A stretch of 63,081 nucleotides of DNA. It comes from a virus. The DNA lies in the IMG/VR virus record IMGVR_UViG_3300010373_000008, positions 1 to 63,081 of that record, one strand, 5' to 3'. A program made the translations under genes and the position numbers. Of the stretch, positions 1,355-26,419 are shown in pieces. Each line of letters opens with the position of its first letter. The first letter of the stretch is position 1. The notes below the pieces were generated by a model. That model was not told the origin of the DNA, did not search any database, and worked only from the letters and a program-made list of their open reading frames with translations.

Positions 1355-2668
1355 TTAATCTAGGTAAGTTAACTGAAAGTTGATCATTCCAACCACTCTC
1401 CCGCTGCGCACATCTGTCCATGTTAGATGTCCGGGGCGAGTGTCACGCGGCCGTAGATTTCCCATGTCGCGCGTAGGAAATAGATCTCCCACAGGAGGTC
1501 TGCGTGGAATAGGTTGCTCAGGAATAGCCTGCTGAATTTGCCATGGGTTAGCGCCTATCCTATTCAGTTGTTCGGCTAATCTCCCCCTTCTTTCGGCCGG
1601 ACCATTGCGCAGACCGAGCGGATCGCCATCCAGCATCACACGCGGAATCGCTACTTCCTCGTCCTCAGGCGAGCTCGCTTTCTTGGTCTTGGGCTTAGTA
1701 AGCTTCGCTTTTTTAGCGGCAAGCAACCTACTCGGCCGTCCGGGCCAAGAAGACTCAGGAACTTGGAATAGTTTTACAGTTGAGCGTAGTTGAATTAGCT
1801 CTGCTGTAATCAACGCTTCTTGAAAAGAGCGCTCGTCGTACATAGGAGCTAGGACTCGGGTCCACTTACCGAAGACCTTACTGAAGAATTCCGTACCTCC
1901 AAGTTTCCGGGCGTACTGAATCACATCCCCCTTGAATTCTTTCGCAAACTTCTTACAGCATAGGATGACATTGATCCAATCTATGATTCGATTGTAATCG
2001 AAGGTAGTAGGAAGATGTCGAAACTCTAGAGTTCCAAACTTAGCTAGAGGAAGGAGATTGATAGCTTGATACTTGCTGAGTAGTCCTCGATCCTCGTGAA
2101 AATAATCCCATAAATTACCCGCCTCTCCTCGGCGAAAGATAATGTTAGGATCCATTACGTTGCTACGTAATTTGTCCCATCCAAATAGCACCTCAGACAG
2201 TGCTCCGAAGTCTGCTTGGCTATCTCCATAGGCATCACAGAACCCACACGCCCGACGATTCTCGCCGGCATAGGCGAACATCGCTGGCTCCATGATGATA
2301 CACGTCTGCATCATACGTGCAAGCTCCAGAGGATCTGTCTCATTCATGTCAGTGGCATCCAGGTGAATGTGAATGCCAGCCCTAGGGTATCCTATCGAAT
2401 ACTTATTCTTCAGCGCATAGGAACAGATCCACGCCACGGCATCCGTAAGATCCTTACCGACTAGCCCTCCATTCGTGACGAACTCTCGTCCATTTACCTT
2501 AAGAGAATGATCCTCTTTAGAGGACCACATCGGACTTAGATCATTCCACTTGAGGGCTTTCTCTACCTCAACTTCCACCCCGATCTTAGCTCCTGGAATA
2601 GCTAGATCATTAGTCTCAATTGGAATAGAGTGCCTAGGTTTACCGAATATCTGAGCTACACTGGCCAT
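1355..2668 (-). CDS. Glutamine-synthetase-like amidoligase (Amidoligase_2-type COOH-NH2 ligase) with a Pro/Arg-rich C-terminal tail
   Basis: 437-aa ORF with the motifs IGVEVEVEKA, GIHIHLD and GTLEFRH, typical of GS-fold amidoligases. TAA stop. Confidence 0.65.
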   Translation of the reverse strand: MASVAQIFGKPRHSIPIETNDLAIPGAKIGVEVEVEKALKWNDLSPMWSSKEDHSLKVNGREFVTNGGLVGKDLTDAVAWICSYALKNKYSIGYPRAGIHIHLDATDMNETDPLELARMMQTCIIMEPAMFAYAGENRRACGFCDAYGDSQADFGALSEVLFGWDKLRSNVMDPNIIFRRGEAGNLWDYFHEDRGLLSKYQAINLLPLAKFGTLEFRHLPTTFDYNRIIDWINVILCCKKFAKEFKGDVIQYARKLGGTEFFSKVFGKWTRVLAPMYDERSFQEALITAELIQLRSTVKLFQVPESSWPGRPSRLLAAKKAKLTKPKTKKASSPEDEEVAIPRVMLDGDPLGLRNGPAERRGRLAEQLNRIGANPWQIQQAIPEQPIPRRPPVGDLFPTRDMGNLRPRDTRPGHLTWTDVRSGRVVGMINFQLTYLD

Positions 2669-5204: not shown

Positions 5205-5579
5205 TCAGTCTTTTAGAGGCGCGCGCGCCAGTTTGTAGGATGTTGGTACATATACAGGTTTAACAGGAGCTACGATCACTGGTGGATTTTTAATCTTGAT
5301 CCTCGGTTTCATTTTAGAATCTGATTTTAGGTTAGGTATTGGATCGTATTCTGGAATGGACGCACCTACTTCTGATCTAGGATACTCACGTTCGTAGGTA
5401 TAGTCATGCTGTTTCCAGTTATTGGATACCCAAATATTGAGAAGTACCTGTCCCTCCCTTAGCTTCTTTACAACAGCATCCATGATCTTGGAACTAGATC
5501 TCTTCTTGATCCAAACAAACCCGAAAGAATGCTTTAGATTCTTGTCACGAACTTTGTACACTGCAATTGTATTCTCCAT
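5205..5579 (-). CDS. Hypothetical protein
   Basis: ORF 5205..5618. The internal ATG at 5579 avoids overlapping the ATP-grasp gene. Confidence 0.55.
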   Translation of the reverse strand: MENTIAVYKVRDKNLKHSFGFVWIKKRSSSKIMDAVVKKLREGQVLLNIWVSNNWKQHDYTYEREYPRSEVGASIPEYDPIPNLKSDSKMKPRIKIKNPPVIVAPVKPVYVPTSYKLARAPLKD

Positions 5580-10007: not shown

Positions 10008-10658
10008 TCACGCGAAATGATCGTCATCTACGCTATCACGCTGCGCCCTAGCTGGATCGTTACGTAGCGTAGCTCTATCAAACATAGTCCAGTTGTAGTC
10101 GAGGATGTAATTATGCGAGTTGCCCTCCAGATTGTACTTATTAGGAGACACACTGATCTTTATGAAGGTACGCATCACCTGCGCAGTAGCTTCTCCTACA
10201 GCATGAACTACAGAGCTATCAAGCTTCAGTAGATGACGATCGGGGAAGGTCACTATATTACTAGGATCCGCCTGTTCTTCAAACTGTACGAGGGAACTTA
10301 CATGATCCTCCTCTACTACGAACAATCCTTTGTTGAATAGGGTAGGGATGCAATCGTACCACACATAGTTGATATCTGAGGATAAGAATCCATCAGCGTG
10401 CCATCCCGGGCGATTTGGAGTTACACCCCCTCCCACGAACATGCGCTTGGCTGTAACATACACGTAGTTGTCTACAAAGGCGCCTGGGTCATTCTCTCTA
10501 ACCTTCTCTAGCAGGGGGTGTAGAAAGCTAAGCCTCATATCTGTAACCCAGTTATCATCTCCCTTCATACTGACTGGTAGGTATAGATAGTACAAGACTT
10601 CTGAGGGCTTTAGTACAATCTCCCCCAAATCTTCAGGAAGCTTCTGCATAGATATCAT
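10008..10658 (-). CDS. Putative Fe(II)/2-oxoglutarate dioxygenase-like protein
   Basis: PGWHADG (HxD), VVHAVGE (distal His) and an R-x-x-x-x-x-S about 10 aa later. Motif spacing only. Confidence 0.4.
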   Translation of the reverse strand: MISMQKLPEDLGEIVLKPSEVLYYLYLPVSMKGDDNWVTDMRLSFLHPLLEKVRENDPGAFVDNYVYVTAKRMFVGGGVTPNRPGWHADGFLSSDINYVWYDCIPTLFNKGLFVVEEDHVSSLVQFEEQADPSNIVTFPDRHLLKLDSSVVHAVGEATAQVMRTFIKISVSPNKYNLEGNSHNYILDYNWTMFDRATLRNDPARAQRDSVDDDHFA

Positions 10659-10692
10659 AATTTATATCCCATCTCTTCAGCTTTCGACCAAG

Positions 10693-10720
10693 TGGCACCC
10701 CTAGACGGACTCGAACCGCC
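10693..10720 (-). tRNA. tRNA 3' fragment (T-arm, 3' acceptor strand and CCA); no intact upstream body
   Basis: The minus strand reads GGCGG-TTCGAGT-CCGTC-TAGGGGT-G-CCA. I could not fold the preceding 50 nt into D and anticodon arms. Confidence 0.5.
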
Positions 10721-10770
10721 AACCAATGGAGTAGAGGGAACTTTTCTATCCAATATACGGTCTAACTAAA

Positions 10771-10847
10771 TGGAACCCCCGCCGAGAATCGAACTCGGAG
10801 TCTCAAGCTTAGAAGGCAAGCGTTTTATCCAATTAAACTACGAGGGC
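10771..10847 (-). tRNA. tRNA-Arg (anticodon UCU), CCA encoded
   Basis: 77-nt cloverleaf: GCCCTCG/CGGGGGT acceptor stem, GTTT/AAAC D stem, anticodon loop CTTCTAA, CCGAG-TTCGATT-CTCGG T arm. The anticodon stem has two U-U mismatches. Confidence 0.65.
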
Positions 10848-10851
10848 ATTT

Positions 10852-11196
10852 ATGAAAACATGTTCAACATGTCGCATAGAAAAGCAAGATACAGAATTTT
10901 ACAACAAAGGCAAAGAAAATAGAACAAACAGTTCGTGCAAGTCGTGTTTTAATGCCTACTGCATAGAACGATGGAAACAACGGAAAATTAAAGTTATTAA
11001 GCAGTTTGGGAACAAATGTGCAGATTGCTCTGTTTCCCACCATCCTAACGTCTACGAATTTCATCACTTAAATCCAGAAACAAAAGACTTTTCATGGGAT
11101 AAAATCCGTCTATTCTCAGAAGAACGCATGCAAAAAGAACTAGCAAAGTGTATTCTGTTATGTGCAAATTGTCATCGTTTACGTCATGTTAAATAG
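10852..11196 (+). CDS. HNH homing-type endonuclease (opposite strand to its neighbours)
   Basis: Cys-rich CxxC pairs, and YEFHHLNP...LLCANCHRLRH (the H-N-H motif). Confidence 0.75.
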   Translation: MKTCSTCRIEKQDTEFYNKGKENRTNSSCKSCFNAYCIERWKQRKIKVIKQFGNKCADCSVSHHPNVYEFHHLNPETKDFSWDKIRLFSEERMQKELAKCILLCANCHRLRHVK

Positions 11197-11221
11197 CTCT
11201 ATCCAATTGAGCTATAGGGGC
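11196..11221 (-). tRNA. tRNA 5' fragment (5' acceptor strand and D arm) abutting the HNH stop codon
   Basis: The minus strand reads GCCCCTA-TA-GCTC-AATTGGATA-GAGC. GCCCCTA pairs 7/7 (one G-U) with TAGGGGT at 10697..10703. Confidence 0.5.
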
Positions 11222-11240
11222 GTATGTAACTAACTTGATA

Positions 11241-11258
11241 CCCTCTCTTTCGAGAGGG
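11241..11258 (-). terminator. Hairpin downstream of gene 11275..11586 (terminator or processing site)
   Basis: CCCTCTC-tttc-GAGAGGG, a 7-bp stem. The T-run after it is weak. Confidence 0.35.
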
Positions 11259-11274
11259 CATAGGGCTAATTACT

Positions 11275-11586
11275 TCAACATTCAAAAAGTAACTCAGCAG
11301 GGCCGCAGTTTTCATACCTACAGTTAGGATTCAAGCAATAATTTAGTGTCTCACCTGTATCTATGCCTGACTCCTTATCTACCATCCGTTCTTCCACCCT
11401 AGAATGATGTGCACTGGAAGTGACAGTCCCCGGCATTAACGACTTCAAGACCATAGATGTTGTTCTAATAGAATCTAGAGATTCGCCGTCCCTAAGTAAG
11501 AGCAGCGCTTCTCTCCATTTGCCCCATCCATGCAATAAATCTCCCGTAGATCCTTTAGGAAGATAGTGTACTTTATATATCTTCAT
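11275..11586 (-). CDS. Hypothetical protein
   Basis: 103-aa ORF. Confidence 0.5.
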   Translation of the reverse strand: MKIYKVHYLPKGSTGDLLHGWGKWREALLLLRDGESLDSIRTTSMVLKSLMPGTVTSSAHHSRVEERMVDKESGIDTGETLNYCLNPNCRYENCGPAELLFEC

Positions 11587-11597
11587 AACAACCTCAA

Positions 11598-12026
11598 TCA
11601 GCTTAGATCAATGCCAGCGGCTTTTAATTGTTCTACGAATTCAGGCAACAGCCGACTAATCTCAAATTTGTAACTCTCTACGAAGCCTTCGACGCCCATG
11701 AGAAGTCGCGCGACTGCCTGCGCACTGGAGTCGTGTGCATTTTGCAATATACAGATTAACCTAGAATGCTTTTCGGGAGCTAATCCGGCAACCACCAGAC
11801 CTCTCCACGCGGTGCTGACCGTAATTCCTTCTCCCACTTCGTCGTAGGGCATTTCTCTATGCTCAATCTTGATAAATGGAGCGGCCCCACATCCTATGCC
11901 TGAATACTTACAAAGGCCAGTATCTTCATCGATAGATGGCCGCCCGTTAGCAAGTACATGCTTGACGGACGTAAACACCACTTCAAACTCAGACATCTGT
12001 TCCAGATTATCGATCGTAATCATCAC
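11598..12026 (-). CDS. Hypothetical protein, weakly similar to 13875..14252
   Basis: 142 aa. GLCKYSGIGCGAAPF resembles GHCKYRGLNGLKCAAGCV. Confidence 0.55.
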   Translation of the reverse strand: MMITIDNLEQMSEFEVVFTSVKHVLANGRPSIDEDTGLCKYSGIGCGAAPFIKIEHREMPYDEVGEGITVSTAWRGLVVAGLAPEKHSRLICILQNAHDSSAQAVARLLMGVEGFVESYKFEISRLLPEFVEQLKAAGIDLS

Positions 12027-25408: not shown

Positions 25409-26419
25409 ATGGCTTCTAATGCCTATATGACTTATAATGATCCGGGTATTGCCCCCCAGATCGGCATCGTAAAGATTGCCGAACTACTTGCCCGTATCGA
25501 ACCGATCACTATCACAGATAAGTACAGCTCATTTACACCGCTCCCGAAGAATCGTGGTGAGGTTATTAAGTGGCGTCGTATTCGTCCGATGGCTGTTAGC
25601 ACGGGCGTTCTTACTGAGGGCGTTACTCCGGCACCGAGCCAGTTCGGATATGACAGTGTTACTACTGTTATTCAGGAATTCGGCGTGTGGGTACAGTTCA
25701 CTGATAAGATCGCAGATCTACACGAAGATCGTGTGTTCAACGATGCGATGACTGCTATTGGTGATAACATTGCCTCCACCAAGGAAGCTATTATCTGGGG
25801 TCAGTTGCGCGGCGGTACGCAGGTATTCTACGCGAACGGCACTACAGTAGGTGGTATCAATACTCCGATCACTGCTAATCTCGTAGCTGCTGGTGTCAAT
25901 CTACTTAAGCGTAACTATGGTAAGAAGATCACCGATCGCCTCGCGGCGGGTCCGGGCTTCAATACCAGTCCGGTTAATGGCAGCTATGTAGCTTACGGAC
26001 ACGTTGATGCTGAGAATGATTACCGTAACATCGACGGCTTTGTCCCTATTGAAGCCTATGGTAGCTTCAAGCCTATTGATGAGCATGAGATTGGCAAGGT
26101 TAACGAAGTACGTATTCTCATTAGCCCGCAGCTTACTGGTGATGTCGGCGCTGGCGCTACTGTTGCTGGCACTGGCATGCGCTCTGAGGGTGGTACTAAT
26201 GTTGACGTTTACTATACTGTAATCGTTGCTAAGGATGCCTACGGTACTGTAGCTCTCAAGGGCATGAAAGCTGTTGAGATGCACGTTGAACAGCCTCGTA
26301 TGCAGAATGGCGATCCGCTCGGTCAGCGCGGCTTCGTAGCAGCTAAGTACTGGTTCCAAGCACTGCGTCTAAATGAGCTTTGGATGGTCCGCCTTGTTCA
26401 CGGTGTCACAGCTCTCTAA
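25409..26419 (+). CDS. Major capsid protein (HK97 fold, N4-gp56-like family)
   Basis: 336 aa with LTEGVTPAPSQFGYDSVTTVIQEFGVWVQFTDKIADLHEDRV, plus gene order. Confidence 0.7.
   Translation: MASNAYMTYNDPGIAPQIGIVKIAELLARIEPITITDKYSSFTPLPKNRGEVIKWRRIRPMAVSTGVLTEGVTPAPSQFGYDSVTTVIQEFGVWVQFTDKIADLHEDRVFNDAMTAIGDNIASTKEAIIWGQLRGGTQVFYANGTTVGGINTPITANLVAAGVNLLKRNYGKKITDRLAAGPGFNTSPVNGSYVAYGHVDAENDYRNIDGFVPIEAYGSFKPIDEHEIGKVNEVRILISPQLTGDVGAGATVAGTGMRSEGGTNVDVYYTVIVAKDAYGTVALKGMKAVEMHVEQPRMQNGDPLGQRGFVAAKYWFQALRLNELWMVRLVHGVTAL

Follow-up and report, generated by a model that had tools for sequence, protein, structure and literature searches.

Homing endonucleases usually spare their hosts by residing in self-splicing introns or inteins, or between genes. 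The closest known system to the locus described here is SegB of phage T4. SegB is a free-standing GIY-YIG homing endonuclease encoded in a tRNA gene cluster, adjoining tRNA-Arg. The enzyme recognises a motif conserved in tRNA genes; its gene is found in some related phages and missing from others, and moves together with adjacent tRNA genes through gene conversion (PMC2330249). Enzymes of the HNH type are encoded in the tRNA region of phage T5 (as cited in PMC2330249). Group I introns with homing endonuclease genes occupy the anticodon loops of bacterial tRNA genes (PMC3984707), and in “fractured genes” a free-standing homing endonuclease gene divides a protein gene, whose function is saved by split inteins (PMC2677866). 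We analysed the IMG/VR virus record IMGVR_UViG_3300010373_000008, complete at 63,081 bp with direct terminal repeats; this whole stretch is called the window below. In it, the two ends of a tRNA gene are separated by an antisense HNH endonuclease gene and an intact tRNA-Arg(UCU) gene. We propose, with a probability of roughly 0.8, that a free-standing HNH homing endonuclease cassette, which targets tRNA-Arg genes and carries a replacement copy, inserted into a single resident Arg tRNA gene.

The interrupted tRNA-Arg gene and an empty counterpart in Kuravirus

An earlier note, made from the letters of the window, had described a tRNA gene broken into an acceptor 5′ strand with D arm and a T arm with acceptor 3′ strand and CCA, and direct reading of the minus strand reproduces this (Table 1). 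In the 5′ stump, the acceptor 5′ strand (7 nt) is followed by TA and by a D arm whose stem has 4 bp (GCTC/GAGC) and whose loop has 9 nt. This stump ends, as the note had it, on the stop codon of the HNH gene, base 11196 being the complement of the G in the TAG of the plus-strand open reading frame (ORF). The 3′ stump consists of a 5-bp T stem, a TTCGAGT loop, a 7-nt acceptor 3′ strand (10700-10694), G73 and CCA. The acceptor strands of the two stumps pair 7/7, the count including one G-U at 1:72, and the 475 nt between the stumps hold the antisense HNH gene and the intact tRNA-Arg(UCU), again in agreement with the note. A script that searched for a T arm plus acceptor 3′ strand with a 7/7 matching acceptor 5′ strand, TA or TG and a D arm up to 1.6 kb upstream found two cases in the window (the intact tRNA-Arg and the split pair), compared with one in total in 100 dinucleotide-preserving shuffles.

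The same layout is found in a cultured phage. The closest relatives of the window HNH protein (55.8% identity) come from four Escherichia phages, including the Kuravirus JacquesWildberger_Bas92 (Bas92), and the window and Bas92 are sisters in a tree of the HNH family (support 94/94). Bas92 carries a stump, an antisense HNH gene, a spare tRNA-Arg and a remnant, arranged as in the window. At this site LAMP, IMEP8 and phiEco32 have one whole tRNA-Arg(UCU) between homologous flanks and no HNH gene. Up to and including the D loop, the LAMP gene is identical to the 5′ side of Bas92; starting with the first anticodon-loop base and continuing to the CCA and beyond, it is identical to the 3′ side. The intervening 8-9 nt are strongly different. 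The sharpness of this boundary indicates a recombination junction and not even decay. As judged from these alignments, the inner remnant is part of the cassette and the outer part is the recipient's, and the comparison shows that in Kuravirus the HNH gene and the spare tRNA entered a tRNA-Arg gene that was already resident. Bas92, the nearest HNH relative of the window, thus belongs to a group in which the element is present in one phage and absent from others, as is typical of free-standing homing endonucleases.

These results bear on the interpretation in the earlier note, which had a homing-endonuclease cassette disrupting or rearranging a tRNA cluster. Disruption by a cassette is borne out, since the layout recurs (see below) and filled and empty sites exist in Kuravirus; rearrangement of a cluster is not, since a single resident Arg tRNA appears to have been hit. 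The intact tRNA-Arg(UCU) is better read as cargo of the cassette than as a bystander. Of the HNH-free relatives that the note had asked for, those of Bas92 do carry the uninterrupted tRNA-Arg(UCU); no such relative was found in the window's own lineage.

The 34 nt that directly precede the 3′ stump (10754-10721) are collinear with the D loop, the D-stem 3′ strand, the anticodon arm and the variable loop of intact tRNA-Arg(UCU) genes. The statement in the note that neither fragment has its missing half nearby therefore does not hold for the 3′ piece, which is preceded by a decayed middle part. In this inner remnant the anticodon stem cannot form, the loop reads CCTCTAC (C33, C38), folding is no better than that of shuffles (z +0.98), and Rfam gave no match at E ≤ 10. 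The stumps, even joined, could not give a working tRNA because this decayed D loop and anticodon arm stand before the 3′ piece. The inner remnant also aligns with the remnant of Bas92, the derived sequence after the D loop being common to both, and it probably travels with the cassette. We had also considered 10754-10721 as a cassette hairpin like those of two related loci (L162 and L163; L numbers denote such loci and contigs throughout). This was dropped, as the comparison of LAMP with Bas92 and the alignment to intact genes favour a tRNA remnant, and the hairpin of L162 and L163 itself looks like a further-deleted version of that remnant.

The split gene of the window was an Arg tRNA, most likely with the anticodon UCU. 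A 512-kb jumbo-phage contig has an intact tRNA-Arg(TCG) whose 5′ part is identical to the 26-nt 5′ stump and whose 3′ end is one base off the 3′ stump, in the acceptor strand. Both stumps resemble the intact tRNA-Arg(UCU) genes of L216 and L002 and carry Arg-type features (the A after GG in the D loop; G73). In every informative relative the split gene is a tRNA-Arg(UCU).

The intact tRNA-Arg(UCU) inside the split has a canonical cloverleaf, scoring 57.7 bits with RF00005 (gathering score 29) over the full length of 1-71, and is the sole tRNA that ARAGORN and Rfam found genome-wide. Its D stem is GTTT/AAAC, not the GCTC/GAGC of the stump. AGA (25%) and AGG (18%) together make up 43% of the Arg codons in the 39 ORFs of at least 150 amino acids, so that a tRNA-Arg(UCU) is plausibly useful, and selected, in this phage (genome G+C 44.6%).

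Table 1. Features of the interrupted tRNA-Arg locus in the window
Feature	Position	Strand	Basis or remark
5′ stump of putative resident Arg tRNA gene	11196..11221	−	tRNA positions 1-25; read directly
3′ stump of putative resident Arg tRNA gene	10693..10720	−	read directly; orphan T arm found by script
HNH endonuclease gene, 114 amino acids	10852..11196	+	ORF; antisense to all neighbours
Intact spare tRNA-Arg(UCU)	10771..10847	−	ARAGORN tRNA-Arg(tct); Rfam RF00005
Inner remnant (second copy of D loop, decayed D-stem 3′ strand, anticodon arm, variable loop)	10721..10754	−	
Spacer from spare tRNA to inner remnant	10755..10770	−	read directly; no function assigned
Direct repeat, left copy (10 nt, D loop)	11198..11207	−	right copy 10745-10754
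Hairpin, 10-bp stem and GAAA loop	11238..11262	−	immediately upstream of 5′ stump

Several smaller features accompany these parts. The insert is flanked by the 10-nt direct repeat ATTGGATAGA (11207-11198 and 10754-10745). This word occurs three times in the window, where 0.24 occurrences are expected by chance, and in none of 100 shuffles did it occur as many as three times. The start codon of the HNH gene lies 4 nt from the 5′ end of the oppositely oriented spare tRNA, and a GAGGG Shine-Dalgarno-like motif (10842-10846), 5 nt upstream of the HNH ATG, falls within the antisense of the spare-tRNA acceptor stem. The spacer has counterparts of 17-22 nt in Bas92, L162 and L163. The hairpin upstream of the 5′ stump folds with −24.4 kcal/mol (z −3.74), and none of 200 shuffles was equally stable. 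A terminator scan did not call it (it has no T run), and it may mark the boundary from the upstream gene to the original tRNA, as a terminator or a processing site.

The HNH family and the recurrence of the layout

By its motifs, the ORF at 10852-11196 is an intact HNH (His-Me finger) endonuclease gene. Its product keeps every Cys, His and Asn column that is invariant among 23 homologues (H71, H72, N106, H108, H112 and C56/C59/C104/C107, plus an N-terminal CxxC...CxxC) and matches seven PHROG families, five of which are annotated as HNH endonuclease (best phrog_2255, E 1e-30). Pfam gave no family for it at E ≤ 0.01, one distant homologue carrying PF01844, and a search of PDB sequences with the family profile gave no match at E ≤ 0.01. 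The family counts 405 cultured-phage records. When a profile of the homologues was run against IMG/VR, more than 558 stretches matched and 80 loci were kept. A tRNA-Arg(UCU) lies within 100 bp of the HNH match in 35 of the 80 loci, and in 29 of the best 35. Arg(UCU) accounts for 42 of the 231 tRNAs predicted in those loci.

The combination of a split tRNA, an antisense HNH gene and a spare tRNA-Arg was found in at least 12 unrelated phage contigs, in two main arrangements. The first is that of the window: L163 has a 5′ stump to about position 20, an antisense HNH gene, an intact tRNA-Arg(UCU), a short remnant, and a T arm with acceptor strand, and L162, L182, L194 and L195 have this layout in a more decayed state. 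The acceptor halves pair 7/7 in L163, L195 and Bas92, each with a sequence different from that of the window, and the tRNA-Arg(UCU) inside the split stands at the same place in Bas92, L162 and L163. In the second arrangement, a 5′ stump to about position 30 is followed by the spare tRNA-Arg, the antisense HNH gene and a 3′ part from the anticodon loop on; the acceptor halves pair 7/7 in L167, L171/172 and L177/178 and are unpaired in L174, which has the same order. The 5′ stump alone was found in L166. In L164 (IMGVR_UViG_3300045988_016711, 2355-2894), which has no spare tRNA and whose HNH gene contains an in-frame stop at codon 11, the antisense HNH gene interrupts a tRNA-Arg(UCU) precisely where the anticodon loop begins on its 5′ side. 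Its acceptor halves pair 7/7 and exact excision would give a perfect tRNA; no Rfam intron was found there.

Because the acceptor sequences vary between loci, the insertions lie in different resident genes. The position of the 5′ junction also varies among the relatives (about 16, 20, 21, 25, 30 and 31). A GCTC D stem is present in 9 of 10 resident stumps, and GCTC/GAGC in none of the 16 tRNA-Arg(UCU) genes that adjoin an antisense HNH gene (Bas92 counted).

Some of these loci have features of their own. In L171 (2030-2094, minus strand), and likewise in L172, L177 and L178, the 3′ remnant downstream of the antisense HNH gene gives a full-length but weak tRNA match (RF00005, 29.1 bits, at threshold) and is not called by ARAGORN, and the first HNH codons in these four loci are the antisense of a second copy of the stump acceptor 5′ strand. 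L167 has a transfer-messenger RNA gene (1804-2188, minus strand; RF00023, 60 bits, E 6e-21) about 200 bp downstream of its split tRNA-Arg locus. L182 has a Twister-P1 ribozyme-like match (5279-5347, minus strand; E 9e-8 in that search), which with 48.5 bits falls short of the gathering score, 67.2.

The orientation of the HNH gene is not constant in the family. One well-supported clade has it on the tRNA strand beside a whole tRNA-Arg, and the antisense types, the window included, fall outside this clade in the tree. The sense-strand types L168, L173, L176 and L179-L191 have a short AT-rich hairpin in the gap that separates the tRNA-Arg(UCU) 3′ end from the start codon of the HNH gene; this hairpin may control HNH translation or tRNA 3′ processing. 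In Salmonella phage FelixO1 (L243, 24848-27589), three annotated HNH genes lie in a 2.7-kb part of the tRNA cluster; the one at 26003-26395 is 49% identical to the window HNH, with no adjoining tRNA-Arg annotated.

The tRNA site of the window lies between genes at 11275-11586 and 10008-10658. The latter (minus strand) encodes a 216-amino-acid protein of phrog_1843, a family of unknown function with an invariant NRPGWHxDG motif and more than 100 homologues. Many large phage contigs have its homologues directly adjoining tRNA clusters: in L005 and L097 the gene starts 17 bp after the end of a tRNA-Pro, and in L002 it is followed by tRNA-Arg and tRNA-Met. A functional link of this protein to tRNAs is possible.

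Origin of the locus and competing explanations

We propose that the ancestor of this phage had one ordinary Arg tRNA gene, most likely a tRNA-Arg(UCU), between the two flanking genes. The cassette that entered it would have comprised (i) the antisense HNH gene, (ii) its own intact tRNA-Arg(UCU), and (iii) a short decayed remnant of an earlier target. The outer ends of the resident gene (positions 1-25, and the T arm to CCA) would persist as non-functional stumps, the middle having been lost or decayed. Such an insertion would cost little, since the spare tRNA preserves the capacity to decode AGA and AGG. During mixed infection, the HNH enzyme would cut or nick the intact resident-type tRNA-Arg of a cassette-free phage, somewhere from the D loop to the anticodon loop. 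Repair would copy the cassette from the donor, with the donor tRNA stumps and any longer flanking homology serving as homology arms. The new host's own acceptor and T-arm sequences would stay outside, and the old decayed remnant would come inside. The outer stumps could be pristine and complementary while the inner remnant is decayed, because each new host would retain its own acceptor and T-arm sequences. The spare tRNA would escape cutting by virtue of a D stem unlike the resident GCTC/GAGC, and may be immune to the enzyme.

A number of points weigh against this proposal. In this proposal the nuclease activity of the enzyme, where and how specifically it cuts, and the bias in inheritance are all inferred, and scans for promoters and terminators gave no convincing plus-strand promoter for the HNH gene. 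The 5′ stump contains a complete D arm, so that the filled locus would still be cleavable if the D arm were the lone recognition site, and the homology arms inside the tRNA would be very short (about 25 and 28-60 nt). The anticodon of the resident gene was read from a decayed loop (TCT in CCTCTAC) and by analogy, and the sole gene that matches the 5′ stump exactly, a tRNA-Arg, has the anticodon TCG and not UCU. Searches for the window's own lineage gave no close relative of this phage: a blastn search with the locus matched none of 50,697 phage records, the exact 28-nt 3′ stump had no match in IMG/VR, and the 216-amino-acid neighbour protein as a single query found no relative in IMG/VR, so that an empty site of this lineage has not been seen. 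Relatives of that protein obtained with a profile (IMG/VR and metagenomes) were too distant for synteny, with only a deaminase-like gene in common, and the nearest of them have no tRNA here or have it elsewhere.

One alternative is that the HNH gene inserted alone, that the tRNA-Arg(UCU) was already its neighbour in a cluster, and that the stumps result from ordinary cluster decay or tandem duplication. The fluidity of phage tRNA clusters would allow this: in L002 a tRNA-Arg(UCU) adjoins a tRNA-Met, and in many relatives (the sense-strand types) the HNH gene stands beside a tRNA-Arg and not inside it. We nevertheless consider it improbable in this lineage, and in Kuravirus it is contradicted: the empty site there has one tRNA-Arg only, whereas the filled site has the stumps and a second, very different tRNA-Arg. 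In addition, the HNH gene and the spare tRNA are 4 nt apart with the HNH ribosome-binding motif inside the antisense of the tRNA, and the nested order recurs in unrelated contigs.

A second alternative is that the interrupted tRNA is functional, the roughly 475-nt insert being an intron or the halves being joined in trans, so that two Arg tRNAs are made. Acceptor pairing of 7/7 in the window and in several relatives despite differing sequences would fit this, as would the inserts of L164 and of the L167 type, which are placed precisely at the anticodon-loop 5′ edge, so that clean excision would give back a perfect tRNA-Arg(UCU). Against it, the pieces of the window, joined at the direct repeat or anywhere else, provide no match for the D-stem 3′ strand and no anticodon stem, and they carry C33 and C38; the 5′ junction, moreover, differs between relatives as listed above. 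Splicing would also be unnecessary as a rescue, given that a whole tRNA with this specificity lies within the insert.

The searches for introns agree with this. Rfam found no Intron_gpI, ribozyme or other intron family over 10300-11700 at E ≤ 10, no intron family in 12 related split loci at E ≤ 0.1, and no intron or ribozyme over the whole window (gathering score) and in 20 HNH loci without tRNA. ARAGORN, which the earlier note had suggested running in intron and pseudogene modes, joined no stumps when introns of at most 1000 nt were allowed and the pseudogene thresholds were lowered; it made spurious calls elsewhere, and at the locus reported only the tRNA-Arg(UCU) at 10771-10847 (minus strand). 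A group I intron in the tRNA gene was therefore rejected, there being no ribozyme core, no joinable exons and no constant junction.

In the split tRNAs of Nanoarchaeum and other archaea, each half carries half an anticodon arm and a complementary leader, and the archaeal splicing endonuclease joins the halves. An archaeal-type trans-spliced tRNA was rejected as well. In the window the 5′ piece ends at position 25, followed by the C-terminus of the HNH gene in antisense, no complementary leader precedes the 3′ piece, and the 3′ region is not unusually structured. The note had already ranked an intron or assembly in trans below disruption; neither finds support here, and we regard a functional interrupted tRNA as highly implausible. 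Nor does the HNH gene lie in an intein, as its ORF is antisense to the split gene. It resides in neither an intron nor an intein, as is expected of a free-standing homing endonuclease.

Finally, the fragments might come from different tRNAs and pair by coincidence; in favour of this, they are short, no intact copy of the exact tRNA was found, and one such pair did occur in 100 shuffled windows. We regard it as scarcely credible, since the 7/7 pairing comes with canonical D and T arms in the correct order and orientation, with Arg-type features in both fragments, with an exact tRNA-Arg match of the 5′ stump, and with many independent parallels whose halves match in each.

If the cassette proposed here acts as outlined, it would explain (i) why a lone tRNA-Arg(UCU) so frequently stands beside an HNH gene in phages, (ii) the orphan tRNA pieces that tRNA finders report at such loci, and (iii) the passage of tRNA genes from one phage to another, unrelated one. 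Cultured E. coli phages (Bas92 against LAMP or phiEco32) offer a direct test, and the system could supply endonucleases whose target within tRNA genes is defined. Annotators should label the stumps as remnants and not describe them as a tRNA that is split or contains an intron. A broader generalisation is more tentative, and we would put it a little short of even odds: such loci may be widespread, undescribed self-complementing homing cassettes, in which the HNH enzyme targets the near-universal core of tRNA-Arg(UCU), the spare copy is immune through compensated D-stem changes, and the halves of the destroyed tRNA act as portable homology arms. If true, the cassette could jump between phage families that have no other sequence in common, from Kuravirus coliphages to this 63-kb phage, and a selfish element could occupy a conserved gene without an intron and at no cost to the host.

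Comparison with described systems

A literature search found no published description of this cassette. Like SegB, the window HNH is encoded by a free-standing endonuclease gene among phage tRNA genes. Unlike the window cassette, SegB is a GIY-YIG and not an HNH enzyme, and its gene lies between whole tRNA genes, without stumps and on the same strand as the tRNAs. No dedicated, sequence-diverged spare copy of the targeted tRNA is described for SegB, whereas the window cassette carries one. SegB activity has been demonstrated experimentally, whereas that of the window HNH is inferred (PMC2330249). The T5 enzymes resemble the window HNH in being encoded in a phage tRNA region, but, as cited in PMC2330249, they are ORFs within the cluster, with no split tRNA or spare copy.

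Group I introns in tRNA genes (PMC3984707) are likewise mobile endonuclease elements within a tRNA gene, and inserts of the L164 and L167 type lie, like them, at the edge of the anticodon loop. In contrast to these introns, the window has no detected ribozyme, its HNH gene is antisense, its exons cannot be joined, and function would be kept by a second DNA copy and not by splicing. Fractured genes share with the window an endonuclease gene that splits a host gene and an element that brings a function-preserving device (PMC2677866). There, the rescue is by protein trans-splicing; in the window, the halves would be abandoned and a whole spare supplied, and the gene that is split encodes a tRNA and not a protein. 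Archaeal split tRNAs have their 5′ and 3′ parts encoded apart, as in the window, but their half anticodon arms, leaders and splicing are absent from it.

An endonuclease nested in a destroyed tRNA gene and accompanied by a spare for the lost tRNA is not described for SegB, the T5 enzymes, the tRNA group I introns or the fractured genes. Next to residence in a self-splicing intron or intein and residence between genes, an element that sits inside a gene, destroys it and brings the replacement would be a third solution for homing endonucleases.

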